Program-made: the position numbers and the translations under genes
Notes under the pieces: model-generated
What the model was told of the DNA's origin: nothing
The model's database searches: none
The model's input: only the letters and a program-made list of their open reading frames with translations
Source: Dipteris shenzhenensis
Taxonomy: Eukaryota
Reading direction: 5' to 3' (one strand)
Length of the DNA: 64,000 nucleotides
Assembly: GCA_047967505.1 (NCBI GenBank)
Contig: CM106538.1
Shown: positions 2,221 to 62,282 of the stretch, in pieces
Numbering within the stretch: position 1 is the stretch's first letter
How the letters are laid out: each line of letters begins with the position of its first letter

Positions 2221-2279
2221 GGAAGGAAGAGCAAGAAAGCAAGAAAGAGCAAGAGAGAGAAGGGTTCCTGTCAGGAGGG

Positions 2280-5914: not shown

Positions 5915-6038
5915 CAAATTTGAATTCAAAAGGAACGTACGAGAAGAAAGTATGAGAAGAATGTTGAACACAAATTTGAATTCAAATTTCGCTCTCTTTT
6001 TTGGAAATTCAAATTTATGCGTAGGAGGAGTGGGCTAG

Positions 6039-26523: not shown

Positions 26524-26546
26524 CACAACAAGACAAAGCAACTATA
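26524..26546 (+). mobile_element. Isolated family-A CACTA terminal inverted repeat
   Basis: CACAACAAGACAAAGCAACTATA matches the termini at 31789, 40327 and 54259. It truncates A1 TnpD and is cut by the LTR at 26547. Confidence 0.75.
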
Positions 26547-30663: not shown

Positions 30664-32220
30664 GGGCCAGTATATTATTTTTGCACTTAATGATTCACTA
30701 ATGATGGATGTTTTCCTTACTTACGATGTCGCATGCAACCTGGGCATACCTTGTGTCCACTTTTGAAAAGAAATCCATTATCGAAGTGCTTCATCTTCGT
30801 TCTATGTTGGATAATCTGCATTCCAAGCTTCCTACATCATTGACTACTCATATTGAGTCATTTAAAGACATCGTGAATTAACTTCCTACTACTGGAGCCC
30901 CTATTGTACAATCTCAACTTGTTGCTGAGTGTTAACATAATATCAAAGACGAAAAATATGGCAATATTGTTACCATTATTTCCAACAAGGATGGTATTGA
31001 TTTTAATCGTGCTTGTATGTCTCTAATTGAAGATTCACAGCCACATGAAAGGCGTAAGCATTAGAAAAAGCCAAGGATCTTTATTCAAGTCTATGAAAAG
31101 AAATGGGCAGCTTGGCGGACTAAACAGGATATTGTGATTGTGATGTTTTCTCATTAATAGCCTGCATTCGGATGATTTAATCCTCCGTCTTTGCTCTCTC
31201 AGATTATAGATATATTTGCACTGCTTGATTGTCTCACACATTACAAGACCTAATTGGAGATTATTGGCCATGTCTCACAACATTTCGTCCCGCACTTTTG
31301 CCAGTTGACAAACCTTCGAGAAGGTACAATCTTCCTTTATTAGCTCTCACATTCTTCAAAACCAATGGACCAAAACCGATGGACCAACAACAGACCATTA
31401 CACTGATTATAAACTACGAGGAAAGGGCATGTTCCTCGTTTTTGTAGCTCTTGGAGAGGAAGCGTGCCACCTCTCCAACCACACACTGTGTGGCTATATT
31501 GACTTTATTTATATTTATATATTTATATCTATATTACTTGCAAACCAAAAAAGTATATCTTCTAAATCAATTAAATTTCTCTATTGATGGTTCTTTTTTG
31601 TTTATGCATGTTCTCAATGCGAGTGAACATTTGCCATCAACAAAGAAGATAACCAAGTTGGATGCAAGATTGAAGGATGATGACAACACTATATAGACTG
31701 TATAGCAATGATAAATTATAAGCTCTTATGAGTATATCCTTACTCATGTATTCAATGCACAAAAGACACACACACAAAATCAATAGTACACAACAACACA
31801 AAGCAACTATAGACGCACTTCATAGATGCGCAAAATAGCAGGCGCATCTATAGGCACTATTCGGATAGAGAAATTACGGCCGCTTCTAATAGTGCGTCTA
31901 ATAGCGCATCTATTAGTGCATCTATTATTGCATCTAATACTATGTGTAATAGCACATCTATTAGCACGTTTATTAGCACATCTGCACTATTAATTAGATG
32001 CGGATTTAGATGCAAAACAGAGAATACAGAAAGTGAGATTTTGGGGCAGCCTGATAAATGTACATCAATGCTTTCCAAACATTGCCCATGATTACCAAAG
32101 CACGTAATTTTAACAAAAATATCAATGCTTTTTTGCAAACCCATGCACATATACAATAATTAAGTGAGGTGAGGAGAATGAGACAATATGTAAAATAGTT
32201 TTGCCAATATCAATGATGGG

Positions 32221-35200
32221 CTACAATTCAATCTCATCATCAATGAGATCAACCCTTGCCAAACTATCTACTTCAAAATCCAAACCAGTGTTGAGATCTA
32301 CAAATATATTCAACCCACTACTACTTGTGCTACTCATGTGCTCATCGAAATCAGCATCACCAATGGTAGGCTCGTCCTCACGGGTAATGGCCTCAATATC
32401 TATATCTCCTATCTCATGATCATCCTCCTCTCTCATATCACGATCATCATCACCTCCATGGCCATGATCATCCTCCATATGCTCCATATTAGTAAATGTA
32501 CTATACATCACTTTGGAATGTGGCGTAATAGGTATGACATGCCACCATCTATTATTATCCACCATCGGTTGATAGACAACCTAATTCAAACACAAATACG
32601 ATCATGTTATTTTCCTTGCATCGAAGGTATCAAATATTTAAAAGTGAGTATTTTTGTATGTGTGTACAATACCTGTTCACATTGTTGCAATAGTACTAGT
32701 GTGTCCTTCTTACTTTGCCAAAACTTTGTGGAGTCAATAGTTACAAAGCCACTTGCATGGCGTTTGATTGTTGCATTAGGGCCTCTTTCCACCACATCCT
32801 TAGACCACTTTACATCCAAAACATACACAAAGAAGTGTCAAAAATCAAGCTTAATAATATCTTGGATTATGCAACAAAAATCATCCATGACTCCATTAGC
32901 TCCCTCAAAGCTAGCAATGACGCCGCAATCTTGTGTGTTTATCTTATCATCAATCCGTTGTGTTCAAAAATTCTTGCCCTCAGACCATATAGCATTGAAC
33001 ATAGTACACTACACCAAGACAAAATCAATTAAATAAGCAATCTAAATTATTGAAAGCTCCTAACTTATGCATAACATTCTATATACCGACCTTGCTCATG
33101 CATCCCCTAGCATACTCCCATTCTTCCATTGTGATATGCATCCCCTCGTCTCTCTCTGCTCTCTCCATTTCTTTAAGTAGCCAATCCACATGAATATCCT
33201 TTGGAAGTGCTCTTAGATACTGAGGGTATGGCACACGAGATCCATGGTGTGTACGAAAGAGGGCCCTTTCTTCTTGTCTTTTTGCCTTTGCATCCTCGTA
33301 TCTTGTCACCCATCTTTTCATCACATCACTATTAAGCATGCAATAGAGGTTGATATTAATAAGCAACTCCATGTCTATTACTTTGGTGCATCCTTTCCCT
33401 TGAGACACAATAGAGGTCATCCTTAGGTCTTCATCATCCCTCCATAGTCGTGGGAGAGAGCTATCCACATCAACAAGAAACTCAAAAATATATACAAGTG
33501 ATTCTTGTGCCAACCAACCCTCAGCCATGCTACATTCGAGTCTTGCATTTTGTCTCACAAAACCCTTCAAGGTCTTCATGAAGTGCTCGAGGAAGAACAA
33601 CCATCGTGCATGTACAATACCGCATATAGCAATCTCATCCACCAAATGCACTATGAGATGTACTTGGCTTGTGAGAATAGAAAGTGGAAATGTCTCTTCC
33701 ACTAAACAAACCACCTCCACTGACATCACTCGAGCATTCTCAAGCGTGGTGGGATCTATTTCCTTTGAGCTCACATACCTAGAAAGGAAAAAGTGCACAA
33801 TATTAGCAATATGAACACCTTGCATCCTGTAAAGTACCTCATAAGCTCGCCCATCTTGTAAATACAATATTCACATTTTGTATCCTGTAAAGTACCTCAC
33901 AAGCTCGCCCATCTTGTAAATACAATCCTTCATGTCCTTTGATGCACTGCAAGAAATGCAACTAGGTAGTATGAACTGAACACACGAGGAATGGTTGATT
34001 AGTTGCTTCTAATTCACTCACAAATTTGGAAGGAAAAATATATTATGCACATAAAATACTTACTTGGAGCATCTTGTGCCAATCATGAGATTTCAAGCCA
34101 TATAATTGCTCTACACCTCTTTTCTTGCTCTTTGTGAAGGCCCCCTCCTCATGCATCTAGTGGGAGTACGAATGGTACTGATAGCATGCTTCACCGCCAC
34201 CATCTCTAGCTTTGATAACGTCCATGGTGCGTGAGGTAAAAAAACGCACCCATTTGGTCTCTCTTGTGGCCAAGCTTCACGCATCCTCCCTGTGGTGTGT
34301 AGATTCTCCCTTATGCTTGCGAAATCTCGTATCCCGTTCAAATGTTCCCAAATGGTAGATGCCACATTCTTAAAGATATGCATGGGATCAAGCAAGTGAT
34401 TGATCTTGAGGTGGGAGCAATATGGTAAACGATAAAAGATGGAGTATCTATACAAAAGCTGGTGTTAGCGAGCAATCTTTATTTCTCCTTTATTTTCAGC
34501 CAATATAGCACACAATAGATACAAACCCTTACCAGCTCATGCCAAGTGGTGGAGTCATCGTGGAACCGTACCAAATTCTCATCCAATCTCCCAGAGTGAC
34601 TGATTGTGGGGGGACTTCATTCCAAGGAGCAACATATCTAGGATGATCACGTGGGAGAAATCGATGGTGATTCTCATAGATGACCTTATTCAATGTGTTT
34701 GCCCATGAGGTAACTAGCAAAGGACCACAAACAGGACATGCATGGTAACCCGATGTAGTGAGACGTGAACAATAGATGGAATTAAGAGTTGAAGGTGGGT
34801 TTAGGGTGCCACATCGATTGCCTACTCCTAATTAAAAGTGAAATGCTTACCTGAACACTCGCCATAGCCTAGGAAGTCATGCATCATCCACATCAAGACT
34901 ACTTTGCAGTTGAAGTCTCGTGACGAGGGAGGCCTGCTCACATCATGCACCTTGATACCTCTCCAAAGTATCTCTAGCTCGTCAATCAAAGGCTCCAAAT
35001 CAACATGATGATTTTTGACTTTATGTTTCCCTGGAATTAGAAGGGATAACATAACATGTCCTTTCTTAATAGCCATAGAGGGTAGAAGATTATAATTCAC
35101 CAATATCACTGGCCATACACTGTAAGAGGTGCTTTTGAGACCAAATGGGTTCACACCGTCCATACTCAATCCAAGTCTCAAGCTCCTAGGTTCTTCCTTG

Positions 35201-36360
35201 AAGCTTAGCCATGTGTCTTCAATATGCTTCCATGCAAGAGTGTCTATGGGAGTTCTCCACTTGCCATTGGTTGATCGATGGGAGGAATGCCATGACATGA
35301 GCTCTGCAATGGATTTGCACTTGAGCATATGTTGGATGCGAGGGATTATGGGAAAATGTCGCAGAACCTTATGAGGCACATCCAAAGTTTTGAGATCTAC
35401 TCTATATCTTGCCTCTCCACAAGTAGGACACTCTCTTGCATCCTTATGTGGTCCACGAAACAGAACGCAATCGTTGACACATGCATGGATGCGCTTGTAA
35501 TCTAATCCTCCAAGAGAGGTCACATGTTGCCTTGCCATATCTCTTGAGGTCGGTAATTTATTCTCCCTTGGAAGCATTTTACACAATAGCCTGCATGTGA
35601 AGACCATAAATGAGGAAAAGCATTCGAGTAATTGACCCACTAGCATAATTCACCATGTTTGCAAAATAGACTTTAAAGCTTACTTGAGTAATGCATTCAA
35701 ACTTGCATTGCTCCATCCATAGATGGTCTGCAAGTTTAGTAATTCACTTGAGTAATGCATTCAAACTTGCATTGCTCCATCCATAGATGGTCTGCAAGTT
35801 TAGTAACTCAAGGGAGGCATGTAGAACAAAGAATGTGCACCCCTCAAACAATGGAGTCAATGCTGTGGTAAAAAGATATCATCCTACTCCATGCTATCAT
35901 CCCTCCCTTCGGATTGATGGACATATAAATCCCGCACTATATCATCAAACACCTCCTATTCCACGGCCTCATGAGGTAATGGCGGAGGGCTACTATCACC
36001 ATCACTCCATGCATCAGTAACGGTCCCTCCTGAAGAACCCACCTCATATCGCCGACGCTTCGCCTCCTCACGACGAGCATAGGGTAACATATGCGGGTGT
36101 GGCTCTGCATCATGTATCAAATTAAAACGGGATCATAACTCAAACACATGAACACCCATAAGTATCTCAATCAACCTTAACTCTTCAACACTTACCATAT
36201 TTACGGTCACATCCCATTCTCCATACTTTGAGATGTGATTGAGTGTAATTCTGCATGCACGATACATGTTTCCTCGACATCAATCACACATACATTTGAT
36301 TTTTTGCTCCGATACGGAGGGATTCATTCTCACTGGAGCTACTTGTTGAAGATGAAGACA
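32221..36360 (-). pseudogene. TnpD-like CACTA transposase (multi-exon, disrupted)
   Basis: YKRIHACVNDCVLFRG..CPTCGEARY, VLRHFPIIPRIQHM, RLGLSMDGVNPFG, MHDFLGYGECSG, HLLDPMHIFKNV, HARWLFFLEHFMKTLKGFVRQ and an acidic C-terminal tail. Confidence 0.95.
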
Positions 36361-37282
36361 TCCCATAAATAAGCAACCCAAAAAATTTGCTCTTGCATGA
36401 GTTGTAAATGTTAAAAACTCTGTGGCACATCTAAAAGCACATCTGTATTGTGGTGTGCATCTACAGGCGTGTCTAAGACGTACTATAGATGTGATGATAG
36501 CGCATATTTAAACGCGCATTTAGATGCCCTTTTAGATGGGCTTTTAGGCACGCATATAGATGCGCTTTTAGACACGTAGACTACGAGCTGATTTTCGAAC
36601 CTACTTTTAGCGCGCTTGCTTTTCTTCACATACTTTTAATGTCGCGCGGCTTGCTTTGCTATTGACAGACATAACTCCGGCCATCCACACTTTCTCCAAG
36701 CACCCACACTCATCTCTACACTTACAAAATCATTCCCAAGCACACAAGAGAAGAGTGTGAACAAGGAAGAGAAGAAAGAGTTCAGCAACTTTGAAGAAGG
36801 ACAAGAAGCTTCCATACCTCTATCCAAGGTAAGTCTCTTGACGGTTGATCTTCTTTGGAAGTTGCTCTCTTTGGATTTGTCCTTTATCGTATGTAGGAAA
36901 CAAATGTTTTTGGTACTAGTGTTGTTTTTTTATGTCGGACGCATGTCCTTTTCAAGTTCTTAAAAAAGTGAGTTTGTAGGAGCACGTCTAATAGCGCGTC
37001 TATAGACGCGTCTGTCTTTGGAAACAGACAGCAGTGTCTATAGACGCGCTATTAGACGTAGATATAGACGCACTTTGATAGTCTTAGATGTTTTTTGTTT
37101 TCCTTCCCTTCCCCTTCCCCTTCCACTTCCAAGAAAAGGATTGCATATTGAATGATGGAAATAAGTGATTGCATGAATGAAGAAAGGTATTGCATGAATG
37201 ATGAAAAGGAAAAGGATGAAAAGCAAGGGATTGCATGAATGATGGAAAGGGAAAGCATGATTGAAGAAAGGGATTGCACTCT

Positions 37283-38197
37283 CTATTTTCCTCTCTTTTT
37301 CCTTCTCTCTTTTATCCTCTCTTTCCTTCTCTTTTCGTCTCTCTTATCTCCTCTCTTTCCTTCTCTTTTCATCTCTTTTCTCATCTCTTTCCTTCTCTCT
37401 TTTTCTCTCTTTCCCTCCTCTCTTTTCTCCTCTCTTTCCTTCTCTCTTTTTCTCTCTTTTTCCTTCTCGCTTTTATTCTCTCTTTCCTTCTCTTTTCGTG
37501 GTAATTTTCCTCTCTTATCTCCTCTCTTTTTCTTTCTTTTTCTCCTCTCTTTTCCTCTCCTTTCTCCTCTCTTTCCTTCTCTCTTTTTCTCTCTTTTATC
37601 CTCACCTTCTCTCTCTTTTTCCTTCTCTCTTTTATCCTCTCTTTCCTTCTCTTTTCGTGGTAATTTTCCTCTCTTATCTCCTCTCTTTTTCTCTTCTTTT
37701 CTCCTCTCTTTTTCCTCTCTTTTCTTCTCTCTTTTTCTCTCTTTTATCCCCACTTTTTCTCTCTTTTTTTCCTCACTTTTCCTCCACTTTCTCCTCTCTT
37801 TCCTTCTCTCTTTTTCTCTCTTTTATCCTCACCTTTTCTCTCTTTTTCCTTCTCTCTTTTATCCTCTCTTTCCTTCTCTTTTCCTGGTAATTTTCCTCTC
37901 TTATCTCCTCTCTTTTTCTCTCTTTTTTTCTCCTTTCTTTTCCTCTATTTTCCTCTCTTTTCTACTCTCTTTCCATCTCTCTTTTTCTCTCTTTTACCCC
38001 CACTTTTTCTCTCTTTTTCTCCTCTCTTTTCCTCTCCTTTCTCCTCTCTTTTATCCCCACTTTTTCTCTCTTTTTCTCCTCTTTTCCTCTCTTTCTCTCT
38101 TTTTTTCCCCTCTCTTTTCCTCTATTTTCCTCTCTTTTCTCCTATCTTTCCTTCTCTCTTTTTCTCTCTTTTTTCTTCTTTTTTTCTTTTCTTCAGT
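37283..38197 (+). repeat. Polypyrimidine (CT-rich) tract in first intron of TnpA-like gene; inverted counterpart at ~48318-48980
   Basis: C/T low-complexity sequence with recurrent GGTAATTTTCCTCTCTTATCTCC units, lying between donor AAG|GTAAGT (36829) and acceptor TTCAG| (38197). Confidence 0.85.
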
Positions 38198-38202
38198 TCA
38201 TC

Positions 38203-39580
38203 ATGTGGCCAGGAAGCTCTTCAGCCTCACCTGATCTTCGGGGAGACCATCTTTCGGGAGTTATATAACCTTTAAGGGCACCCTCCTGGGGAGTTATACG
38301 GCTACATGACGGGTACTCTAAACACCCCTAGGAGTCGGTACTAAAAATTCTAAACCACCCCAACCCCACACCAGCTAAGATTACCTCAGTGGAGTCAAGA
38401 TAGCCTAGTCAGCTACAGAGCCGAGCCCCTTTCCCCATGCCGTCAGGAGGCCCTTCTGTATCGCAGAGCCATCGGCATACTCCCATGCAGTCGAGACTTG
38501 GTTCTTTAGCTATGAGTGGTCAGCATAGTCCCCTGCAATCGAAAGTCACTTCTCCAGCTATGAGTGGCCAGCGTACTAGCTCGACACGACATGGTAGCAG
38601 GCGTAGTAGTAGGGAGAGCGGCGGGGGATACATGGCACAGTGCTTTGGGAGGGGTAGTGGTGGGGATGTGGATGATTCAGATGATGCATACGTGCCAGAG
38701 GGTGACGGTACGATCTACTATGACATCACTCAGACAGGAGGCATCTTGATGGATGCACGGGGGAAGCACATCATGGCTTTCATGCACTCTGTAATTGCTA
38801 ACAACTACAGAGATTGTTTATTCACTACAAAGACCATCCAAAAAGATTGGCTGATGAGACCCTTGCTGCTGTTCACTCTAGGTATCCCAATCCCCCCAAT
38901 GTTTAGTTCACAGATAAATGGGCCAAGTCAAAGATTGTTATGATACATAGTAATAAAAGATCTTCGCTTAAGAGGCAGGCACTAGCGGAGATTGCCAGGC
39001 TCGAGGGAGGTCAACCACCAAGGGGCCCGCCCCACACCGCTCACAAGCGTAAGCGAAAGAAAGCAATGAAGGCATTGAAGGTGGACCCCAGTCTGCAGCA
39101 CATGGAGGCACGAAGGATCCAAATGGAGCAATATGGAAGCGTGCATTTTGGAGAAGGGGGTGTTGAATCATGGGAGGCCCAATTTGTAAGTATCGATCTC
39201 AAATTATATTGTTTATGTAGTTTATTAGGAGGTTGTTTCTTTGTACTAACCCCTCCACAAATTGTGTCATCTTGCAGCTTGATATCGTGGGCAGGTAGCC
39301 TACTCCTGTCAAGACAGCCTATCACTGCCACCATCGTAGAGGAGATACATGGAGGCACTTCTATGATGACGAGTTGATTACTGAGGAGCAATATATCTGG
39401 GCTACTGGAGCGCCCCCCCAAGTATTTGAAAGTAATTAAATAATGTCAATATTGTAAGTAAAGATTTGATTTTTCTTACATTGATACATGTTGTCCCTCG
39501 CTTACAGGGCCCTACAGAAGAAGATGAGCAAGGAGGCGCAGAAGGGGGCGAAGAAGGGAGCGAGGATGTGGAGAACTTAG
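38203..39580 (+). pseudogene. TnpA/Ptta-like accessory gene of CACTA A2 (disrupted)
   Basis: Ser-rich N-terminus, then IYYDI..YPNP..KRSSLKR..RRIQMEQYGSVHFGEGG followed by a GTAAGT donor. It parallels the family B ORF at 56810-57391 and lies inside the TIRs. Confidence 0.65.
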
Positions 39581-41124
39581 ATTAGTCGTAGAAGTAGTGC
39601 TAGCTACTCTTTTTTGTACTTAAAGCCACTGGTTTGGCTTCGTGCCTCTCTTGTATATACACTCCTCTTATTTTTTGTACTTGAAGCCACATGACATGGG
39701 TTGGCTTCGTCCTATATGTACATAGAAGCACTTTTTGAGCTATGAATTAATATACACTCTTTTCATTTTTTTGGCTTTCAATTTTCTTGTGCAACGTTCT
39801 ATCAATTAATGCCTTGTGAACTAAACGTTTTGGAGTTGTAATGTTTTATTCGGAATTGTAATCGTCGGCTATAGACGTGCTTGCAAGAGTGCTAATTAAA
39901 ATGCAATTGGCTGTAAGAATTGAATTGCACAATGTGGAAATGGGATTCTTGTAACTACATAGCATACACAACATACACAGCATTCTGTTCAAGCACACAA
40001 AATTCTGCTTTTATTAACAAAAAAAATTCTATAGAGCGTTTATCAAAGCGTCTATAAATGCGTCTATGTATACATCTCTCTGTTCAAGAGGGCATCTATT
40101 TGTGCATTTATAGATGCGTCTATAAACGCGCCTATATACGCATCTCTCTATTCTAGTAGAGCATCTATTTGCGCATCTATAAGCATGTCTGTCTGTTATA
40201 TAGGCGTACCTTTAGATGCGGGTCTGTAGACGCGCCAATAGACGTGCAAATAGACGCACTGTAATGATTTTTTTAAGTTATGGAAATGCATCTATGTGCG
40301 CGTCTGTAGGTGCTTTGTCTTGTGGTGGTAAAACACCATCCCTGAGATTTGCAGGGAGGAACGGGTCCTAATGCACCCATTCTCATGTCTCATTTCCATA
40401 ATTTTACTTGTTCAATTCATAAAACCGTGGGAAACAAAGAATACAACAAACTTCAAGCGAACTCGGGGTCATTGAATGATACATAAATGTGCACCTTAAT
40501 ATAGACGATACATAAACACAACATCATTTTTTGTTGTGGAAACAAAATCACCTAATTTTGCAGTTACAGAAGTGTTAACCTCGATATAGATGATACTAAA
40601 TACAATTGCTATTTTTTTATTTTGAGAACATTAAAAAGGTCTTGTTCTATCGGAGAATTTTACAATTGCATGAGTGTGAACGACTAATTCAAACGGGTCT
40701 CAAGTACTAATTCAAACAGACATGAAGTACCTTGCACTAGCTCAATGCCACCTAGTAGTTTGAACCACGCCTTGCATGATACTAGTTTTGTACCATACAT
40801 TAGCTTGGTAGATTGCAGTCTAACAAATGGAGTAAATGATGATCTAGAGCATTCCCAGAAAACCTTATTCTCACTAGATGCTAAGTTGAAAACTCTGAAG
40901 GTTTTTATTGAAATTTTGCAGCTTTTGAGGGAAAATAGAAATTTACAGCCTTCTATTTTCATATTCATTCAACCTTGGTTTTCAATGCCCTGATCTCAGA
41001 TGATTCAAAAGCCAGTCTTAATGGTAGATTTCCACAACCATTCTCCACCATACTTTCCTTACAGAATTCGATGCTCAAATTCACCTGCAAAATGATGGTT
41101 CACAAGCTGCCCAAGAGCCAAATT

Positions 41125-41400
41125 AAGGATGATCATCGTTGTTGCAACCAGGTCTGTCATACAGGAAAAACTGCAAACTGGGAGACGATCGTTTTCGTTG
41201 ATGATCATCGTTGTTGATGAGGCTGATGATGATCATCGTCGCGGCAACTAAATCTGTCATCCTTCGATCAAGATCCACTGGGAGACGATCGTATTCGTTG
41301 ATGATCATCGTTGCTGATGAGGCTGATGATGATCGTCGCTGCAACTAGATCCGTCATCCTTCGATCAAGACAGAAAAAGACTGCAAACTGGGAGACGATC
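41125..41400. repeat. GATGATCATCGTTG-based tandem repeats
   Basis: Repeated GGGAGACGATCG, GATGATCATCGTTG and GTCATCCTTCGATCAAGA units. Confidence 0.8.
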
Positions 41401-41510
41401 GATCTCTTGCTTGCCTCTCCTCCCTGTTATTATGCATCACCGAGCTAGAAAAGCACCTCATCATATGATGGACAAACTTCAAGCATCAGAATTTATCCGC
41501 CTCCGTGAAT

Positions 41511-47866: not shown

Positions 47867-50800
47867 GCACTGTGCCATGCATCCCCCACCGCTCTCCCTG
47901 CTACTACGCCTGCTACCGTGTCGTGTCGAGCTAGTACACTAGCCACTCGTAGCTGGAGAAGCGACTCTCGACTGCACGGGACTACACTGATAGTCGTAGC
48001 TAGAGAACTGAGTCTCAACTGCACGAGAGTACACCGATGGCTCTGCGATGCAGAAGGGCCTCCTGACGGGGGGAAGGGGCTCAGCTCTATAGCCGGCTAG
48101 CCTGTCTCGACTCCACTAGGGTAATATCAGCTGGTGTGGGGTTGGGGTGGTTTGGAATCTATAGTGCCGACTCCTAGGGGGTGTTTAGAGTACCCGTCAT
48201 GTAGCCGTATAACTCCCCAGGACTGGGAGGGTGCCCCAAAACGTTATATAACTCTCGAAAGATGGTCTCACGAAGATCAGGTGAGGCTGAAGAGCTTCCT
48301 AGCCACATGATGAACTGAAGAAAAGAAAAAAAGAAGATTACTGATGAACTGAAAAAAGAGAGAAAAAGTGGGGATAAAAGAGAGAAAAAGAGAGGGAAAA
48401 AATAGAGAAAAAAAGAGAAAAAGTAGGGATAAAAGAAAGAAAAAGAGAGAAGGAAAGAGAGGAGAAAAGAAAGGAAAATAGAGGAGAAAAAAAGAGAGAA
48501 AAAGTGGGGATAAAAGAGAGGAGAAATGAGAGGAAAAGAGAGGAAAAAAAGAGAGAAAAAGTGGGGATAAAAGAGAGAAAAAGAGAGAAGGAAAGAGAGG
48601 AGAAAAGAGAGGAAAATAGAGGAGAAAAAAAGCGAGGAGAAAAAAAGAGAGAAAAAGAAAGGATATAAGAGAGGAAAATTACCACGAAAAGAGAAGGGAA
48701 AAGAGAGAAAAGGTGAGGATAAAAGAGAGAGAAAGAGAAAGAAAGAGAGCAAAAAGGAGAGGAAAAGAGAGGAAAAAGAGAGAGAAAAAGAGAGGAGATA
48801 AGAGAGGAAAATTACCACGAAAAGGGAAGGAAAGAGAGAATAAAAGAGAGAAGGAAAAAGAGAGAAAAAGAGAGAAGGAAAGAGAGGAGAAAAGAGAGGA
48901 GGGAAAGAGAGAGAAAGAGAGAAGAAAAGAGATGAGAAAAGAGACGAAAAGAGAAGGAAAGAGAGGAGATAAGAGAGAATCACTTTTCTTCATTCATGCA
49001 ATCACTTATTTCCATCATTCAATATGCAATCCTTTTCTTGGAAGTGGAAGGAGAAGGGGAAGGGAAGGAAAACAAAGAAATCTAAGACTGTTCAAACGCG
49101 TCTATATCCATGTCTAATAGTGTGTCTATAGGCGCGGCTATCTGTTTCCAAATACAGATGTGTCTATAGACATGCTCCGACAGACAAACTTTTTTTAGAA
49201 CTTGAAAAGGACATGCACCCGACACAAAAAAACAACACTAGTACCAAAAACATTTGTTCCCTGCATACGACAAAGGACGAATCCAAAGAGAGCAACTTCG
49301 AAAGAAGATCAACCACCAAGAGACTTACCTTGGATAGAGGTATGGAAGCTTCTTGTCCTTCTTCAAAGCTGCTTCTCTTGTTTGTTCACCCTCTGCTTCT
49401 ATTTCTTCTCTTCCTTGTTCACCCTCTTCTCTTGTGTGCTTGGGGATGATTGTGTAAGCTTAGAGATGAGTGTGGGTGCTTCGAGATAAGTGTGGATGCC
49501 CGAAGCTATGTCTGTGAATAGCAAAGCAAGCCGCGTGACATTAAAAGTATGTAAAGAAAAGCAAGCGCGCTAAAAGTAGGTTTGAAAATCCACTCGTAGT
49601 CTACACATCTATATGCGCGTCTAAAAGCACATCTAAACGTGCATCTATCAACACATCTACAGTACGTTTTAGATGCGCCTATAGACGTGCACCATAGTAT
49701 AGACGCGCTTTTAGACGTGCCACAAAGTTTTTAACATTTACAACTCATGCAAGAGCAAATTTTTTGGGTTGTTTATTTATAGGCTGTCTTCATCTTCAAC
49801 AAGTAGCTCCAGTGAGCCTTGAATCCCTCCCTATCCACCATCGCGAAATATGATTGGGGCAAAAAATCAAATGTATGTGTGATCGATGTCGAGGAAACAT
49901 GTATTGTGCACCCAGAATTACACTCAATCACATCTCAAAGTATGGAGAATGGGATCCGACCATAAATATGATAAGTGTTAAAGAGTTAAGGTTGATTGAG
50001 ATACTTATGGGTGTTTATGTGTTTGAGTTATGATCCCGTTTTAATTTGATACAGGATGCAGTGCCACACCTATATATGTTGTCCTACACTCATCGTGAGG
50101 AGAAGCATCGGCGATATGAGGTGGGATCTTCAGTAGGGACCGTTATAGATGCATGGAGTGATGATGATAGTAGCCCTCCACCATTACCTCATGAGGCCGT
50201 GGAGGAGGAGGTGTTTGATGATATGGTGCAGGATTTATATGTCCATCAATCTGAAGGGAGGGATGATAGCATGGAGCAGGATGATCTTTTTACCGCAACA
50301 TCGACTCCACTGTTTGAGGGGCGCACATTCTCTGTTCTACATGCCTCCCTTGAGTTACTAAACTTGCAGACCATCTATGGATGGAGCAATGCAAGGTTGA
50401 ATGCATTACTCAAGTAAGCTTTAAAGTCTATTTTGCAAACATGGTGAATTATGCTAGTGGGTCAATTACTCGAATGCTTTTCCTCATTTATGGTCTTCAC
50501 GTGCAGGCTATTATGTAAAATGCTTCCAAGGGAGAATAAATTACCGACCTCAAGAGATATGGCAAGGCAACATGTGACCTCTCTTAGAGGATTAGATTAC
50601 AAGCACATCCATGCATGCGTCAATGATTGCATTCTGTTTCGTGGACCACATAAGGCTACTTGTTTAGAGGCAAGATATAGAGCAGATCTCAAAACTTTGG
50701 ATGTGCCTTGTAAGGTTCTGCAAGATTTTCCCATAATCCCCTGCATCCAACATATGTTCAAGTGCAAATCCATTACAGAGCTCATGTCATGGCATTGATC

Positions 50801-53800
50801 CTCCCATCGATCAACCGATGGCAAGTGGAGAACTCCCGCAGACACTCTTGCGTGTAAGCATATTGAAGACACATGGCCAAGCTTGAAGGAAGAACCTAGG
50901 AGCTTGAGACTTGGATTGGGTATGGACGCTGTGAACCCAGTTGGTCTCCAAAGCACCTCTTACAGTGTATGGCCAGTGATATTGGTGAATTATAATCTTC
51001 CACCCTCTATGGCTATTAAGAAAGGACATGTTATGTTATCCCTTCTAATTCCAGGGAAACATAAAGTCAAAAATCCTGATGTTTATTTGGAGCCTTTGAT
51101 TGATGAGCTAGAGATACTTTGGAGAGGTATCGATGTGCATGATGCAAGCCTTCCTCGTTATGAGACTTCAACTACAAAGCAGTCTCGATGTGGGTGATGC
51201 ATGACTTCCCAAGCTATGGCGAGTGTTCAGGTAAGCATTGCACTTTTAATTATGAGTAGGCAACTGATGTGGCACCCTAAACCCACCTTCAACTCTTAAT
51301 TGCATCTATTGTTCAGGTCTCACTACATCTGGTTACCATGCATGTCCTGTTTGTGGTCCTTTGCTAGTTGCCTCACGAGCAAACACATTAAATAAGGTCA
51401 TCTATGAGATCACCATCGATTTCTCCCACCTTATCATCCTAGATATGTCGCTCCTTGGAATGAAGTCCCTCCACAATCACTCACTATGGGAGATTGGATG
51501 AGAATTTGTGACAGTTCCATGACTCCTCCACCACTTGGCATGAGCCGGTAAGGGTTTGTAACTATTGTGTGCTATATTGGCTGGAAATAAAGATTGCCCA
51601 CTAACACTTTCTTTTGTTTAGATACTCCATCTTTTATCGTTTACCATATTGGTCTCAATCACTTGCTTGATCCCATGCATATCTTCAAGAATGTGGCGTC
51701 TATCATTTGGGAACATTTGAATGGGACACGAGATTCCGTAGGCATAAGGGAGGATCTACTCACCACAGGGAGGATGCATGAATCTTGGCCACAAGAGAGA
51801 CCAAATGGGCATATTTTTTTACCTCGTGCACCATAAAGGTTATCAAAGCTAGAGATGGTGGCGGTAAAGCGCGCTATCGGATGCATGAGGTGTTTGAAGG
51901 GGTCCTTTACAAAGAGCAAGAAAAGAGGTGTAGAGCAATTATAAGGCTTGAAATCTCATGATTGGAACAAGATGCTCCAAGTAAGTATTCTATGTGCATA
52001 ATATATTTTTCCTTTCAAATTTGTGAGTGAACTAGAAGCAACTAATCAACCATTCCTCATGTGTTTAGTTCATACTACCTACTAGCGTTTCTCACAGTGC
52101 ATCGAAGGACATGAAGGATTGTATTTACAAGATGGGAGAGCTTGTAAGGTACTTTACAGGATACAAAATGTGAATATTATATTTACAAGATGGGCGAGCT
52201 TGTGAAGTACTTTATAGGATGCAAGGTGTTCATATTGCTAATATTGTGTACTTTTTCCTTTCTAGGTATGTGAGCTCAAAGGAAATAGATCCCAGCATGC
52301 TTGAGAATGCTCGAGTTATGTCAGTGGAGGTGGTTTGTTTAGTGGAAGAGACATTTCCACATTCTATTCTCACAAGCCAACTCCATAGTGCATTTGGTGG
52401 ATGAGATTGCTATATGCGGTACTGTACATGCACGATGGTTGTTCTTTCTTGAGCGCTTCATGAAGACCTTGAAGGGTTTCGTGAGACAAAATGCAAGACT
52501 CGAAGGTAGCATGGCCAAGGGTTGGTTGGTACAAGAATCACTTCTGTATATTTTTGAGTTTCTTGTTGATGTGGATAGCTCTCTCCCACGACTATGGAGA
52601 GATGATGAAGACTTAAGGATGACCTCTATTGTGCCTCAAGGGAAAGGACGCAGCAAACTAATAGACACGGAGTTGCTTAATAATATCAACCTCTATTGCA
52701 TGCTTAATAGTGACGTGATGAAAAGATGGGTGACAAGATACGAGGATGCAAAGGTAAGAAGATAAGAAGAAAGGGCCCTCTTTCATACACACTACGGATC
52801 TTGTGTGCCATACCCTCATTATCTAAGAGCACTTCCAAAGGATATTCATGTGGATTGGCTACTTGACGAAATGGAGAGAGCAGAGAGAGACGAGGGGATG
52901 CATATCATAATGGAAGAATGGGAGTATGCTAGGGGATGCATGAGTAAGGTCGGTATATAGAATGTTATGCATAAGTTATGAGCTTTCAATATTTTAGATT
53001 ACTTATTTAATTGATTTTGTCTTGGTGTAGTGTACTATGTTCAATGCTATATGGTGTGAGGGAAAGCATTTTTGAACACAACAGATTGATGATAAGAGAA
53101 ACACACAAGATTGTGGCATCATTGCTAGATTTGAGGGAGCTAATGGAGCCATGGATGATTATTGTGGCACAATCCAAGATTTTATTAAGCTTGATTTTTG
53201 ACGCTTCTTTGTGTATGTTTTGGATGTAAAGTGGTTTAAGGACATGGTGGAAAGAGGCCCTAATGCAACAATCAAACGCCATGCAAGTGGCTTTGTAACT
53301 ATTGACTCCACAAAGTTTTGGCAAAGTAAGAAGAACACACTAGTATTACTACAACAATGTGAACAGGTATTGTATACACATAAAAATGCTCACTTTTAAA
53401 TATTTGATACCTTCGATGCAAGGAAAATAACATGATAGTATTTGTGTTTGAATTAGGTTGTCTATCAACCAATGGTGGATAATAATAGATGGTGGCATGT
53501 CATACCTATTACGCCTACACATTCCAAAGTGATGTATAGTACATTTACTAATATGGAGCATATGGAGGATAATCATGGCCATGGAGGTGGTGATGACTCT
53601 GATACAAGAGAGGAGGATGATCATGAGATAGGAGATACAGATATTGAGGCCATTACCCGTGAGGACGAGCCTACCATTAGTAATGCTGATTTTGATGAGC
53701 ACATGAGTAGCACAAGTAGTAGTGGGTTGAATGTATTTGTAAATCTCAAAACTGGTTTGTATTTTGAAGTAGATCTCATTCAGGATGAGATTGAACCGTA

Positions 53801-54259
53801 GCCCCATCATTGATATTGGCAAAACTATTTTACATATTGTCTCATTCTCCTCACCTCACTTAATTTTTGTATATGTGGCATGGGTTTGCAAAAAAGCATT
53901 GATATTTTTGTTAAAATTACGTGCTTTGGTAATCATGGGCAATGTTTGGAAAGCAATGATGTACATTTATCAAGCTGCCCCAAAATCTCACTTTTTGTAT
54001 TCTCTATTTTGTGTCTAAATCCACGTCTAAATCTGCATCCGATTCATAGTGCAGACGCACTAGTAAACACGCTAATAAGTGTGCTAATAGATGTGCTATT
54101 AGACATGCTATTAAACGCGCTAATAGATACGCTAATAGATGCGTTAATAGACGTGCTATTAGACACACCTATAATTTCTCTATTTGAACAACACCTATAG
54201 ACGTGTCTACTATTTTGCACGTCTATGAAGCGCATCTCTAGTTGCTTTGTGTTGTTGTG
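47867..54259. mobile_element. CACTA family A copy A3, inverted relative to A2, nested in family B TnpD; TnpA-side end deleted
   Basis: Colinear reverse complement of 31789-~38643, with right TIR TAGTTGCTTTGTGTTGTTGTG ending at 54259. Family B TnpD resumes at 54260. Confidence 0.93.
49800..53801 (+). pseudogene. TnpD-like transposase of A3
   Basis: Same motifs as A1 and A2 (LDYKHIHACVNDC, RLGLGMDAVNP, HARWLFFLERFMKTLKGF), with stops and frameshifts. Confidence 0.93.
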
Positions 54260-55275
54260 AATCTGCTGGGATCCTCAAAGTGTCATCGGTGGACCAATGT
54301 GTAGCATGCCACATCATTAGTTGCGCAATGGACATGCATCTGAACATATGCTATATTCTGGGGATGATGGCAAAATGTCTCAAGATCTTCATTGGGATCG
54401 TCTCCCCCAGCAAGTCCTGTCTGTAGCGCTATGCTCCACAGTCCGGGAAATTAACCAAATCAACATACTCATGATGAACCAAAATACAATCATTAGGGCA
54501 AGCATTGATGGTGTTATAATCCATCCCAACCATCGTCAACATCTTCTTTGCTTCGTCTCTGGAATTAGGCCTAGTATTTGGGATATGCAACATCTTCTCG
54601 CACAACGTATTACAATTTGCATATCCAAGAAACCTTGTGAATGAGATACTAATTAATCAAAACAATTAGGAACGATATACTAAGATCAAGGCTCCAAACC
54701 TCATCAAGGCTAAGACACCTATGTCTGGCCATCCATACTTTGCTTGCAAATTCAAGATCGAGAGGCAAGCTCATAGTTTTGACATCCTCGCCCATCATAC
54801 AACATTGTTGATGCCAAATCTCACATCACAATCTCATGCTTAGACATCTCACCCCCATCTCTTGTGGTGCCTCTAAAAAAATAATCCATCGTGTCCACCA
54901 TACCCTCGTCCTCCTCTAGAGGATCATCCTCAAGATCATCTTGATCAAAGTGTGGTGGTGGTGCACATGCTCCCTCGCTACTCTCCTCATTCTGTATAAC
55001 ATAAATAATGCAAGGTTAGTCTATGCAACAAGGACAAGAAATATAAATATCCATGAATCATTCAAATATCATTAGTTTATCGATGATGCACCAGCATGTC
55101 AACTAATATCCCCTTTTGGTGGCACCTCTCCATACATCTGCAAGTGGCGCATTACAATACGGCATTGATGATGAACTCCTTGCCTGCAATGCATGCAAGG
55201 ACAAGCCAATCTCTGACGAAGCCACTTCAAACTCCCAGGAGGTGGCCCCCTATCTAATGAGCTATCACTAATCAT
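54260..55275 (-). pseudogene. Family B TnpD, N-terminal portion
   Basis: LACPCMHCRQG..IVMRHLQMYG (transposase-associated CPC motif) and ILRHFAIIPRI.HMFRC..LMMWHATH. Confidence 0.85.
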
Positions 55276-55503
55276 CCTCTCCACCTGCACACATCCACAA
55301 CCATCCCCCCAAGTCAAGTCAAATACCCAAATCCCCCAAATTCCCTCAAACCCCCTAATCCCCTCTCTTTCCCCAAACACCGTGAGGCCTAAACCCCCCC
55401 AAAAACCCTAAACCCTAAACCCCTAAAACCCCCAAGTTTCATCAATATGGGCATCGGTATATACTAACGACCATACCGATGCTCTGTTTTTATATACCCA
55501 CTT

Positions 55504-55927
55504 TCATACCGATGCCTGTACTGACGGATTCTGGGAACCAAAGACCTGTGATGTTCATCCCATGATGCCATTCAAGTTTTCGTGTATTCTCCTCCCTCGC
55601 TTTTGCTTTTAGCTCCCGATCGCCCACAGCCCTTGCCTCCTCACTCCTGCCTCCTCCCTCCCCCTCCCACCTCTCTATCCTCTCCTACATTGTCCCTTTG
55701 CACCTACAAGATGCCTGTACTTTCATACGGATGCCTGTAATGATGGATTCCAGGAACCAAAAACCTGTGATGTTCATCCCACGATGCCATTCAAGTTTTC
55801 GTGTGTTCTCCTCCCTCGCTTTTGCTTTCAACTCCCGATCGCCCACAACCCTTGCCTCCTCACTCCTACCTCGCTCCCCCTCCCACCTCTCTATCCTCTC
55901 CTACATTGTCCCTCTGCACCTACAAGA
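55504..55927. repeat. ~218-bp tandem duplication upstream of family B TnpA-like gene
   Basis: TCATAC(C/G)GATGCCTGTA...TGCACCTACAAGA occurs twice, followed by donor AAG|GTAAGA at ~55959. Confidence 0.9.
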
Positions 55928-56579
55928 CTTGCTGCTGCAGCTCCCCCTCCATCTCAAGGTAAGAATTCCTCTCTTCCCATGCTATTTTGAACAATTTGTT
56001 TGGTTTCTTTGTCTTTCTTTCTACCTCTCCTCTTGTTTCCCTTCCTTTCTCTAGAGTTTCTCTCCTCCTTTCCTTTCCTTTTCTTTCTCTAAAGATAGAA
56101 ACAATACATGAAAAACAATCATGAAAGAGAAGAGTATGAAAGCTCTACCTATTGTTTTCATGCTCTCTCCTTGTTTGCAGGCTTCTCTATGTCTCCTCAA
56201 TCTGTACCCTTTGGAATATTGCTTCTCCAAACTCCTTTCACTAATTAGTTTTTGTTAAATGGTATGTTTCCTCTCTTTTATAGGGCAATAAACATGAAAC
56301 ACCTCCTCTTTCAAATAGAATCATCCGGTGCCAGGACATGTCATTTCCAAGTAAGAACATGCTTCATTTCTTTTCCTATTTTTCTTTTCGTGAATGCATT
56401 GGCCTACAGCTAGCACCTTCAATGCTAACTGCAGTGATGGGTGTAGGAACTCTCCTCTCTTTTCTCTCTTTTTCCCATCTCTTTTTCTCTCTTTATCTCC
56501 TCTTTTCTCTTGCTCCCCTCTCTTTCTCTCCTTTTCTCCTCTCTTTTCCCTCCCTCTTTTATTCCCTCTCCTACACCCC

Positions 56580-57925
56580 TTGGGGTAGATCAGGGACATA
56601 GATCAGGGATAGCGACGGCTTTACCTACTCAATAGTCATCCCCTATAGCCCCTTTCAAGGGGTCATCACCTAGGCATACCCATCACAGGTCCAAAAATAG
56701 TAGTAAGGGTTGAGGCTGTTGTGGTCGCACGAGGGATGTAGACGAGTTTGCACACTCACATCCCTACAAGTCTCCCCTTCCTCATGAGATGTAATACCAG
56801 TCAAGTCCCTTGCCCTCACCACTCATAGGTGGCAGCAACCCAGAGACCACTTGCTCCCTTACTCCTCGCTCCACCCCTCACTGTAGCTCTGCTACTCCAT
56901 CCACCGCAAATCCTTCGAACTTTGTTTTGCCCAATGACCTATTCTACAGAGTGAACAGTGTTGGGGAGGTTATACAAGATGAGGATGGGAAGGTGGTCAC
57001 AAGATACATGAGGAGGTTGGTGAGCACTTACTTCTTCAATGATATATCCAAACCTTGGAAACAACAGGACAAGAGTGCCAGGGAGGCCTACATAGATGCC
57101 CTCAAGAGACAATTTCCAAATCCTAAAGGGTATGAGTTTGATCAAAATGCCCTACTTACTCGCATGGGGGAGCTCCTTAAGTCTCGTAGATACGAATTAA
57201 GGGAGGTTGTTAAGGAGGGTAGGCACAAGCCAGGATGGGCGGACCCAAAGGATTAGAAGAGAGCGAAGAGGAATTACAAGGAGAATCCAAATGCGTTTGA
57301 GCCTCAACGGAGGGCGGCAAGGATATGCCTGGAGACTGTAGGTCCTTCGCACCTCGAGAGCAGTGGCAGCTTTGGCAACGAGGCATGGGTGGTAAGTATG
57401 TATTTATCTTCTACTAAATTTCTAATATGTTCAATCGTTCAAATGCTCTTCAAATGTCTTGTCACTCATATCTAACTAATTGAATTTGGATCCACAAGAA
57501 TCTCTGATTGGAAGGTCTTCAGACAATGAGGAGTATAGAAGGGCGTTCAACCTTGCAGCCAAGGCATGGTTTAAGGAGAAGGAGAGAGGAGGATTCCACA
57601 TTGATTGGGAAAGGGTGGCAACGCTTCATTGAGTATATCATACTCCTCTTTGTTATCGTTTGACTATCACCATTGTCTTATAATCTACGCTCTTAGTTTT
57701 TCTAACTTGTTTCATTCTTAAGGAGGTATGTTCGACCCATCCGGAGATCTGGACAGAGAGATGGGATTCTAAAGAAGATGCGGTTAGGCTAGCAAAGGAG
57801 GGTGAGGGATTGTGTGCACACAGAGAGACCAAGGGCAAGGAGGATGAGGAGGGCGCATGCAGAGAGACCAAGGGTGAGGAGGGCGAGGAGGACAAGGAGG
57901 GCGGGGACGATGAGGAGCAATAGTA
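56580..57925 (+). pseudogene. TnpA/Ptta-like accessory gene of family B
   Basis: LFYRVN..KPWKQQDK..QFPNPKG..LLKSRRYELR..KPGWADPKD*..RRAAR..GPSHLESSG, then a GTAAGT donor and an acidic tail. The start is approximate. Confidence 0.65.
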
Positions 57926-60288
57926 GGATAGGACATTTAGTCATCCAGTATTTCAGCACTTCTGCCGTTTTGCAGTCGATTACCTTAGCAACCTCTCAGC
58001 GGATTTGCCTTTTTGGAGTTAGCACTTTTGCCATTTTGTAGTGCATTAGCGCATTACTTCAACGGATTTGCCATTTTGTAGCACATTGCTTTGGCACATT
58101 TGCCATTAGTTTGTAGACCTTCTTTGCAAATTTCTAATGTACACCTCCACATTTGTAACATTTAACCGTGATTTTAATGAAAATATATATATGTGGGGTG
58201 GGATGGGACTGAAACAAGCCCCATCCTACTCAACTTTTTTTTAGCTTCTATAAGAACGTCGGTATATATAGATATGTGTACCGACACTGCAGTTTTGGTA
58301 TCTACCAATGATGCCTACACTAACACCCATACTAACATTGTCAGGCATATTTTATTGACGGTGATACCGACTCCTACACCGATGGTTCCTTTGTCACATC
58401 CACACCGACGGACTTTCCGACACTTTCCACTTGTTTTAAAAAAATTCTTCGCATTTAGCGTTGGTATCGGTGTCAAAAAGTGGCCCATGTCTTGTAGTGT
58501 GGGTTAGTATTTATAGCTTTAGATTTGATAATTTCTCTTAAACAATTAACGTAAATTTTTCATATAAGCTCCAAATTTAGCAATTTGCACAAGTCATCTG
58601 GATGCATCTATAAGGTTAGATTTTTCAAATTCTATGTTATGAAAAAATGTATATGAAGGTTAAGTATACTAAAACCTGTTGAAGCCTAGATAATAGCATG
58701 GGTTAATATTTGTAACTCTATATTGGGGAATTTTTAAACCCAATGACCTATCCATTCCTCTTTTCCCCTGCAAATCAAAATACCTCTCTAAGACTTCATA
58801 AGTTTTAGATAACAAGCTCATATAAAGACACTTTCAAAATATTTTTTGCATTCCACCCTTGAATCCATATTCAAAAAATGTGTGTTTATTAGAACTCCAT
58901 CTTGTCCATGTTACTTTCTACACAACACAAAATTACTTGCTTTTATAAGATTTGATGCATTGACAGGTCATACCAATCCACACTACTTTCGTTTTTCTTT
59001 TTAAGATGAATAGCACCATCATGTTGGGCACATAAAAAGGGGAACTTTTCCTTTTTATTGTGTCTTGATCCAAGATTATATGTGAGATATGTAGTGGATA
59101 TGTGTGGCATTATGGCATGCTATGGGATTTCATGGGGTTGATAATGGTATTTCCAGTTGATTTCTTCATAGAGATCAATTGTCTTGGCATTGAAGTCGTC
59201 TTATTATTCGAGTGTATTATTGCATTTTGCTATGTACAAGGGAAAAATCTACCTTTTTTGTTATGTGGAGAACAAGCCTTGTTTTCTTTGGAAAGAAAAG
59301 AAATGAAAGAAAAATTAAAGGGAAAAACTATGCTAGCACCATAATCTCTCCTTAGCTTCTCCCATTGGCTAGCTCAAACCACCACTAGCCCCCTCCAATC
59401 CCCTCCCACCACTATCACCTCGACTCCCTGCCCCTAAGACTCTATCCCTATAGAGATTCGATTTGTCTTCCCCTTCTTTGTCATCCAACTGTCCATCCTA
59501 CTGCATTCTCAATGTACCAAAGGCCATTTTTGGCATCATGCTAGTCCTTGTTGACTTCCTTGGTGGACTAAATTCTTTTAAGGCTCCTAGTTGTGGGTTT
59601 CTTGTGTTCTTTTGATATTCAAGAGTTCAAAGCTTTTTTAGGCAGTTCATAGTTTTTCACTAGGTATTTCTTAGCTTTGTTGGTCATTTCTTTTAAGCTC
59701 AAGAATTTATTAGATTGTGTAAGCTTAGCATGCTCTGTATATTTTGCTCTTTTTTCTTTGATTTTGTCTACGCTTTGCAAACTCGGATTGCTTGTTTTCT
59801 ATTTTCTTTATGGAGTAGAACCTTTGAATGATCAGACACAAGACTGATATTCCCATGTTTTTATGGGTTTCATGTGCCATCACAACAAATATTTATCCAA
59901 AATAAATGTTTTGGGAAGGTCTCAGAAAATTGAAGGGTACTGAGACTCTTCCTTGACTAGACCACAATCAGCCACCGTGCACATGTGTGCAAGATCAATC
60001 GATTGGTTTTGCATTAAGTTGGCCAAACAATATTCGAGCTTTACAATTTTGCATAAATTAGAGTGGAGGCAAGTAGATACATACCTAACTTGCAATGAGA
60101 ACTAGAGCCACCAGCCAGGTAATCCATCAGTCCAAATGGATTTAAGGCCATCTCAATATTTAAGCATCAATCAACCATCGTCCGAAAACGCTTTCGCAAA
60201 TTACAGTGTGTAGGTTAACTTTTTTTCAAAAAAGCTTTGTAGGTTAAATTAGAAAGGCAACAAACATAGAATGCTAGAATGAGGTGAT

Positions 60289-61600: not shown

Positions 61601-62282
61601 AACTATTATTTCTTCCTATTCCATATTATTTAAAAGAATGAAACTGAGATGGAACACTATGCCCCCCTCTTTTATATATTCTAAAGCATAAACACCTACA
61701 ACACATATATTACCAAATAGTATATGAATATCAATTTTCATTAAAACTCCCTTTCCCTTACATGCAAGTGAGCCTATGGAAATGGCAAATGAATCCCTTG
61801 GGATTTCTATTGATGCCTAGTTTCATGCCATATCTTTGTGCTTTCAAATTTCCATTTTGATTGAAGAGGAAGTATTGAGAATCATGTTTTGATTGCAAAC
61901 AAATTGCTTATTCTTGGACAGCTCTAATAGGTGTTATATCAAATGGTCACGCATGAAGTTTTAAAGTGCTATATAAGCACTCATGTGTGAAGCAACTAGG
62001 TGTTAGTCAACACATCAAACTTTGTGTTGATCATGAACGAATTATGATTACTCTTATGCCTCATCCTAGATGAGACACTATTTGAAAAACTAGATTGTGG
62101 AATTTTGGAAATAAATGCACCCCACTTATTAATTTCATAACAATGCATAAACTATCCTTGCTACAAATATATTTTGTAAGTTTTAAGAATAAAATCACCC
62201 CTCATTTTGAACTCTCATGGTATACTTACATTTCCCAAACTAACCCCCCAATGCTTTGCATGCCTTAGGATGTTTTCCGCAT

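Follow-up and report, generated by a model that had tools for sequence, protein, structure and literature searches.

The stretch of DNA analysed in this study, a window of 64,000 nucleotides (nt), is eukaryotic, repeat-rich plant DNA from contig CM106538.1 of Dipteris shenzhenensis. The region described here is a decayed, nested pile of CACTA (En/Spm-superfamily) DNA transposons that belong to two deeply diverged families, A and B. In both families, one terminal inverted repeat (TIR) is followed by a TnpD-type transposase gene reading outward, a central region, a second gene (ORF2) directed outward on the opposite strand, and the other TIR. This head-to-head layout is supported as the architecture of the elements, not a local accident, because copy A2 has both TIRs with GTA on either flank, copy A3 shares the junction running from TnpD through the centre into the 5′ part of ORF2, and B repeats the same order.

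Two nested transposon families

Comparison of the window with itself revealed three copies of family A (A1, A2 and A3) and no DNA similarity between A and B. Because such similarity is absent and the TnpD proteins of A and B are 42–52% identical, the two are counted, on sequence grounds, as separate families, as the preliminary description of this DNA had proposed. A Pfam scan was performed on 150 stop-to-stop open reading frames (ORFs) of at least 70 amino acids (aa) at 19828–59341 and on 57 further ORFs of at least 70 aa. A Transposase_21-type DDE transposase with DUF4218, as expected of CACTA/En-Spm elements, was identified in A1, A2 and A3, and Transposase_21 was identified in B; DUF4216, for which a search had also been suggested, was not detected at E ≤ 0.01. 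Other features of the superfamily are a 3-bp target site duplication (GTA/GTA in A2; two of three positions in B) and subterminal arrays of short direct and inverted repeats in both A and B. The CACTA label earlier given to both families fits the termini of B, which carry CACTACAAGACA with 0 mismatches, and does not fit those of A, which begin CACAAC or CACCAC; the latter (CACAACAA... and CACCACAA...) differ from the B 12-mer by 1–2 mismatches and represent a degenerate variant. With up to 3 mismatches allowed, the 19-nt family-A terminus CACAACAACACAAAGCAAC was found at 5 sites in the window, where 0.01 were expected: 22141, 26524 and 31789 on the + strand, and 40327 and 54259 on the − strand.

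Element A2 (31789–40327) is a complete family-A element of 8539 bp with a 3-bp target duplication, since its TIRs at 31789 (+, CACAACAACACAAAGCAAC) and 40327 (−, CACCACAAGACAAAGCACC), although imperfect, are flanked by GTA on both sides. Pairing of the terminus at 26524 with that at 40327 was rejected because their flanks are ATA and GTA, respectively. The left TIR and subterminal repeats (31789–32100) consist of 12-bp units with a TAGAYGY core, which matches 10 times in 312 bp, and include 12/24-bp arrays at 31881–31983 identified by Tandem Repeats Finder (TRF). The right subterminal repeats and TIR (39901–40327) hold 12 matches in 427 bp and an array of two 68-bp units at 40048–40181 (TRF). 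The decayed TnpD-type gene of A2 occupies 32494–36327 on the − strand. It contains Transposase_21 (34831–35649, −, E = 3.6e-40) and DUF4218 (33082–33870, −, E = 2.4e-21). In tblastn with homologues P0004 and P0001, the gene extends from 35854 down to 32664, and a piece of homologue P0136 carries it to 32494. Its ATG lies at 36327 and opens a Cys-rich N-terminal exon, so that the leftward reading from about 36360 in the preliminary description was right. An in-frame TGA at 36282–36280, 15 codons past the ATG, is CGA (Arg) in A3; this C-to-T substitution within a CpG is what a methylated, decaying transposon would show. A 64-bp tandem duplication lies at 35682–35810 (TRF).

Element A3 (47868–54259) is an inverted family-A copy truncated within the 5′ part of ORF2. 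In reverse orientation it matches A2 31789–38643 at 82–91% identity: A2 31789–35746 corresponds to 54259–50351 (90.7%), 35746–37191 to 50415–48978 (85.7%), and 37508–38643 to 48967–47867 (82.2%). Its TIR lies at 54241–54259 (−). The TnpD gene (49800–53573, +; tblastn 50256–53573) includes the N-terminal exon and contains Transposase_21 (50799–51194, +, E = 2.4e-35) and DUF4218 (52343–52762, +, E = 6.2e-15). At the junction 47867/47868, which corresponds to A2 position 38643, the ORF2 sequence of A3 abuts Transposase_21 sequence of B. The earlier view of A3 as the same layout inverted thus holds for its TnpD, centre and orientation, and ORF2 is limited to its Ser-rich 5′ part, truncated at 47868.

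A3 sits inside the TnpD gene of element B and splits it in two. B had been described as a 4.2-kb unit at 54260–58499; its TIRs, CACTACAAGACA at 45197 (+) and 58499 (−) with flanks TAG and TGG, instead delimit an element of 13303 bp including A3 (45197–58499), with about 6.9 kb of its own sequence. The 5′ part of B TnpD (54260–55275, −) has its ATG at 55275, which agrees with the earlier leftward reading, and a Cys-rich N-terminal exon; residues 169–319 of P0004 map to 54791–54246 (tblastn), and a Transpos_assoc match is weak and below the cut-off (E = 0.0022). The 3′ part (46257–47867, −; tblastn with P0004 aa 367–1020) contains two pieces of Transposase_21 (47540–47938, −, E = 1.1e-8; 47187–47561, −, E = 3e-7). 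About 45–50 codons of B TnpD are missing at the 47867/47868 junction, and a single deletion spanning the border between A3 and B would explain both this loss and the truncation of A3. A further B-like TnpD fragment lies at 62200–63567 (−), with about 75–78% DNA identity to B, about 40–54% identity to relatives in tblastn (63567–62772), and three B-type TCGGTR motifs clustered at 62200–62400. Most probably this is a relative of B, truncated or with a deletion, that continues past the end of the window.

Element A1 (22141–26523) derives from family A by deletion: its TnpD is on the + strand, and it has neither centre nor ORF2. Its TIR at 22141 has 2 mismatches, and 99 bp of terminus are joined directly to the TnpD 5′ region, which from 22240 aligns to A3 49825–51283 and A2 36310–35746; Transposase_21 (23268–23615, +, E = 4.2e-32) and DUF4218 (25156–25641, +, E = 1.1e-22) are both present. 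Directly where the A1–A2 homology stops (A2 32502), a family-A-type terminus, CACAACAAGACAAAGCAAC, occupies 26524–26546 (+) with 1 mismatch. Beyond 24 bp the sequence is unrelated to family A, and a candidate partner terminus at 30303–30314 (−) has non-matching flanks. The terminus at 26524 may belong to a nested non-autonomous relative or mark an aberrant transposition junction.

All copies of TnpD and ORF2 in the window are decayed, and none of A1, A2, A3 and B is intact. A2 carries the nonsense codon and the 64-bp duplication in TnpD and a frameshift in ORF2, B ORF2 has a stop, A3 is truncated, and B is interrupted.

The second gene

The preliminary description called the second gene TnpA/Ptta-like. 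A protein-coding gene does lie opposite TnpD in both families, with its conserved domain at 38632–39194 in A2 and its coding region at 56624–57412 in B, and no ORF or homologue of it matches Transposase_24. The A2 gene (38404–39215, +) begins with a Ser-rich N-part (38404–38631); a frameshift near 38853–38907 divides it into ORFs at 38404–38940 and 38907–39374 (+). In B, ORFs at 56795–57253 and 57257–57472 (+) share one frame and are separated by a TAG at 57254–57256. When the B ORF was used as a HMMER query in an exhaustive search, 26 proteins were found at E ≤ 0.001, 6 of them at E ≤ 1e-10 (best 1.3e-18). In tblastn of all 26 against the window, B was matched on the + strand across 56624–57412 (for example P0121 aa 76–259 at 56858–57412, E = 1.8e-29), and 9 of the 26 also matched A2 38476–39215 (+) at E ≤ 1e-3, the best being P0138 (5e-28). 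Because homologues of B ORF2 also match A2, the two genes are assigned to one family, linked through these intermediates only.

An alignment of 21 of the 26 homologues with three pieces from the window, leaving out four fused proteins and P0145, shows a Ser/Pro/Arg-rich N-part followed by a conserved domain with the blocks YYD.D..G.I....GK.V, DIL.DW..QP, LH.EFPNP, LKSRR and HLGSGG....FVS. We presume that the HLGSGG block resembles a motif of Ptta-type proteins. An AlphaFold model of ORF2 predicts five helices (mean predicted local distance difference test score 82; 110 of its 171 residues score at least 90). Foldseek found no match to it in the PDB at E ≤ 0.001. The VIA wide search gave a best hit of Z = 5.6 and placed several BEN DNA-binding domains at Z = 4.5–5.2, values that do not reach the noise level quoted for helical models.

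The ORF2 family matches no Pfam model, either in the window ORFs or in the 26 homologues. For Transposase_24 (PF03004), the HMMER check that had been suggested was negative throughout: in the 150 and 57 window ORFs, in 10 selected ORFs at E ≤ 10, in 54 downstream + strand ORFs of at least 25 aa, and in the 26 homologues, for 13 of them even at E ≤ 10. A language-model search of the Atlas, restricted to named clusters, returned Transposase_24 clusters for 20 of 30 matches (scores 0.90–0.91). These share 132–148 features with the query, fewer than the 170 usual within one family; a distant kinship to Transposase_24 is therefore a lead only. A separate Atlas search with B ORF2 gave only unnamed clusters with recognition below the usual level. 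A search for longer proteins homologous to B ORF2 found none, and an ORF2 profile retrieved 4 proteins, all unnamed. A scan of metagenome contigs identified two true loci of 2.4–2.7 kb (L001 and L002) and a doubtful one (L003), none with TnpD and hence uninformative on the layout.

ORF2 is nevertheless judged, from sequence comparison, to be a genuine transposon gene, because its slot is the same in A and B although their transposases are only 42–52% identical, and because 4 of its 26 homologues carry TnpD segments. It takes the place of TnpA in the element, and by analogy with TnpA it is probably an accessory factor that binds the terminal repeats.

Central regions and expression of the two genes

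In both families the 5′ ends of the two genes face the centre, 4–4.5 kb from either terminus. Genes of TnpA and TnpD type on one strand beside a promoter at the 5′ terminus, as in En/Spm, are found neither in A2 nor in the partial A3 nor in B. The A2 central region (36328–38403) contains motif clusters, a putative 5′ exon and a CT-rich tract. TAGAYGY, the 7-mer core of the subterminal repeats of A, was derived from the termini and counted on either strand; it occurs 12 times in the 924 bp at 36327–37250, against 0.42 expected from its rate outside family A (Poisson P ~5e-14). The A3 centre holds 10 copies and the A3 subterminal region 6, and the gene bodies have 0.4–0.7 per kb. Rightward from the TnpD ATG, A2 shows a TATA-like CATAAATA near 36362 (TATAAATA in A3), motif cluster I at 36425–36575, a putative ORF2 5′ exon whose donor CCAAG|GTAAGT at 36829/36830 is conserved in A3, a motif cluster forming a 34-nt palindrome at 36984–37059, and a 0.9-kb CT-rich tract at 37279–38183 (a 12-bp unit repeated 79 times, TRF), which is followed by the Ser-rich start of ORF2. 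The centres of A2 and A3 are 87% identical.

The B centre (55276–56623) is built from comparable parts: three TCGGTR motifs within 54 bp at 55454–55507 (P = 0.013; the B termini have 6 each), a 212-bp tandem duplication at 55500–55927, a putative 5′ exon with donor CTCAAG|GTAAGA at 55958/55959, and a CT-rich tract at 56451–56552 upstream of ORF2. In both families it is the sense strand of ORF2 that is CT-rich in these tracts, as seen from strand skew and TRF, and the putative AAG|GTAAG donors lie 500–680 bp from the TnpD ATG. The preliminary description placed the starts of ORF2 near 36750 and 55900. The one basis for these starts is the pair of putative 5′ exons that end in AAG|GTAAG. On the purine-rich strand of the CT-rich tracts, frames of up to 179 codons, rich in Lys, Arg and Glu, are open in both families (37286–37822, −, and 56324–56602, −); they have no Pfam match and are probably a composition artefact of the repeat.

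Taken together, the explanation we favour with reasonable confidence is that these are nested CACTA families with outward-reading genes, an accessory ORF2 and internal divergent transcription under feedback control. Both genes would be transcribed divergently from one or more internal promoters in the centre. The promoter of En/Spm is regulated by the binding of TnpA; similarly, the element's own motif-binding protein, presumably the ORF2 product by analogy with TnpA, would feed back on the central promoter or promoters. Internal promoters appear most likely because both 5′ ends face the centre, 4–4.5 kb from the termini, and because the centre repeats the subterminal motifs. Together with the CT-rich tract, these motifs are as expected of an internal control region. 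One bidirectional promoter, two separate promoters or long read-through transcripts from the termini could each account for expression of the two genes.

Several observations weigh against this explanation. No copy in the window is intact, the layout of B is known from one copy only, and motif enrichment in the B centre is weak. A direct BLASTP comparison of A ORF2 with B ORF2 was not significant (E ~1), and none of the Pfam searches described above matched ORF2 to Transposase_24. From the TnpD ATG to the conserved coding sequence of ORF2 there are 1.3–2.3 kb; unless the putative 5′ exons exist, this exceeds the span of a classic bidirectional promoter. The sequence analysis shows the gene identities, strands, element borders, motif clustering and homologues, whereas the transcription start sites, the function of ORF2 and the identity of the motif binder are inferred.

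A bolder version, which we regard as possible but doubtful, is that a lineage of the En/Spm superfamily exchanged its terminal promoter and alternative splicing for an inverted TnpD block and a self-regulated bidirectional centre. This change would be ancient, preceding the split of A and B with some relatives reverting, or would have arisen twice. If the centre is bidirectional in this way, the ancestral promoter in the 5′ subterminal region may have been the source of its control region.

A serious, though unlikely, alternative is that the TnpD block alone was inverted, so that ORF2 is driven from the left terminus through a long first intron holding TnpD in antisense, or, in the mirror case, TnpD is reached from the right terminus, with one internal promoter at most. 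In En/Spm, the TnpD frames are known to lie within tnpA, in its first intron. In related lineages, TnpD exons are spliced to ORF2 on the same strand; to invert the TnpD block once would therefore be enough to produce the present map, and the subterminal motif clusters are as expected of an ancestral promoter. However, the dense motifs, the short putative 5′ exons and the TATA-like box are all central, beside both 5′ ends, and a 4.5-kb intron containing an antisense gene is less parsimonious.

Capture of ORF2 as host cargo, as in Pack-CACTA elements, is very improbable. ORF2 has neither a Pfam family match nor a named homologue, as cargo might; but it keeps the same position and strand in families with such divergent transposases, TnpD exons precede the ORF2 domain in 4 of 26 homologues, and 20 of the 30 nearest named Atlas clusters are Transposase_24, although this last point is a lead only. 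The preliminary description had named captured cargo as a finding that would overturn it, and the shared slot and the fused homologues speak against cargo. It is equally hard to credit that the layout is an accident of nesting, inversion, deletion or assembly error: the locus is indeed heavily nested and rearranged, with A3 in B beside a junction deletion, A1 joined to the stray TIR at 26524, and B seen once, but A2 is bounded by two TIRs and by identical 3-bp flanks, the TnpD–centre–ORF2 5′ junction recurs in A2 and A3 at 82–91% identity in different insertion sites, and B, without DNA similarity to A, has the same order and strands.

Relatives, surroundings and known systems

Four of the 26 ORF2 homologues (P0136, P0141, P0143 and P0144) have TnpD exons N-terminal to the ORF2 domain. 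In P0143, a TnpD exon ending ...EEWEFSHGCSDK is joined directly to ORF2, and the corresponding A2 exon ends ...EEWEYARGCMSK, followed by GT. The last TnpD exon of P0136 runs into ORF2, P0144 combines a TnpD N-terminal segment with ORF2, and P0141 joins TnpD C-terminal sequence to it. P0136, P0143 and P0144 are near-identical in their ORF2 part and, with P0141, make up two lineages. Because the products join TnpD exons to ORF2, they imply that in these lineages, as in En/Spm, TnpD lies upstream of ORF2 on the same strand. The preliminary description took the head-to-head layout to predate the split of A and B. Given relatives with a predicted same-strand layout, that claim is unproven. An ORF2 tree of 29 rows, from which P0145 was dropped as a likely spurious bacterial Ig-like match, pairs A2 with P0138 (support 100/99), leaves B unplaced and does not resolve the deep nodes. 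A 7-row tree of TnpD C-terminal sequences puts P0143, with its predicted same-strand layout, beside A rather than B, with weak support (Shimodaira–Hasegawa-like approximate likelihood ratio test, SH-aLRT, 82), and gives no resolution at deep nodes. The head-to-head layout may still go back to one old origin.

Among named proteins, the best relative of the window's transposase, at 57% identity, belongs to the fern Adiantum nelumboides. Two proteins without names are closer (62% and 57%), and angiosperm matches reach at most 47%. Fern DNA transposons are little described, which adds to the interest of these elements.

To the left of the transposons, the window contains other repeats. Two satellite-like arrays of a ~182-bp tandem repeat (1–1284 and 10212–11606) show 74–92% identity within and between arrays. 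The block at 2000–6000 is very G+C-rich (74% in 2001–4000), with an excess of G and A on the + strand (GC skew 0.67), degenerate internal repeats and a 1.36-kb duplication at 96% identity (3227–4568 and 4571–5916); its long ORFs have no Pfam match. A 2.1-kb direct repeat with 93% identity (6643–8744 and 13341–15453, starts 6.7 kb apart) could be the long terminal repeat pair of a retrotransposon enclosing one satellite array. Copia-type remnants occupy 17111–19556 (−), with RVT_2 (E = 6.6e-12 and 3.4e-11), an integrase core (E = 3e-4) and a Pol beta-barrel domain (E = 3.8e-10).

In textbooks, CACTA elements stand for transposons whose two proteins arise by alternative splicing from a single promoter, next to which TnpA binds to provide self-regulation. 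Families A and B resemble En/Spm in their Transposase_21/DUF4218 DDE transposase, short TIRs (CACTACAAGACA in B), 3-bp duplication, subterminal repeats and second, accessory gene. They differ from it in that their genes lie on opposite strands with the 5′ ends facing, and in that the second gene has no Pfam Transposase_24 match; with the genes on opposite strands, one terminal promoter with alternative splicing cannot yield both proteins. A full-text literature search, which covered few subscription papers and did not include Repbase, Dfam or TREP, found no description of opposed CACTA genes; a prior description is possible, and the head-to-head CACTA layout is probably new. If the proposed expression from the centre is true, divergent genes around an internal motif-rich region would represent a second regulatory design within the CACTA superfamily, and would offer a natural test of how the ratio of transposase to accessory protein and self-repression are set. 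The work on ORF2 also defines a conserved second-gene family missed by Pfam; without this family, automated annotation would label such elements "transposase only" or ORF2 a host gene.

Outside the superfamily, maize MuDR has two convergent genes, each driven by a promoter within its own TIR. Like MuDR, A and B are DNA transposons with two genes on opposite strands that would be separately transcribed; unlike it, they belong to another superfamily, and their genes diverge from the centre, whereas those of MuDR converge from terminal promoters. Compared with the lineages of P0136/P0143/P0144 and P0141, A and B have the ORF2 domain family and the TnpD exon boundary in common, but their ORF2 is upstream and inverted, whereas in those lineages it would share a strand with an upstream TnpD. 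Among CACTA elements, maize Spm and Arabidopsis SPM3/7 are described as one gene each that yields alternative isoforms, soybean Tgmt* as a gene that contains both ORFs, and the tnpD–tnpA pair of lettuce as contiguously transcribed. Arabidopsis SPM2/5/6/9 are described as having two head-to-tail genes, an arrangement that the authors termed unexpected. A and B share with these elements separate transposase and accessory genes; theirs, as described there, are head-to-tail on one strand, whereas those of A and B are head-to-head.

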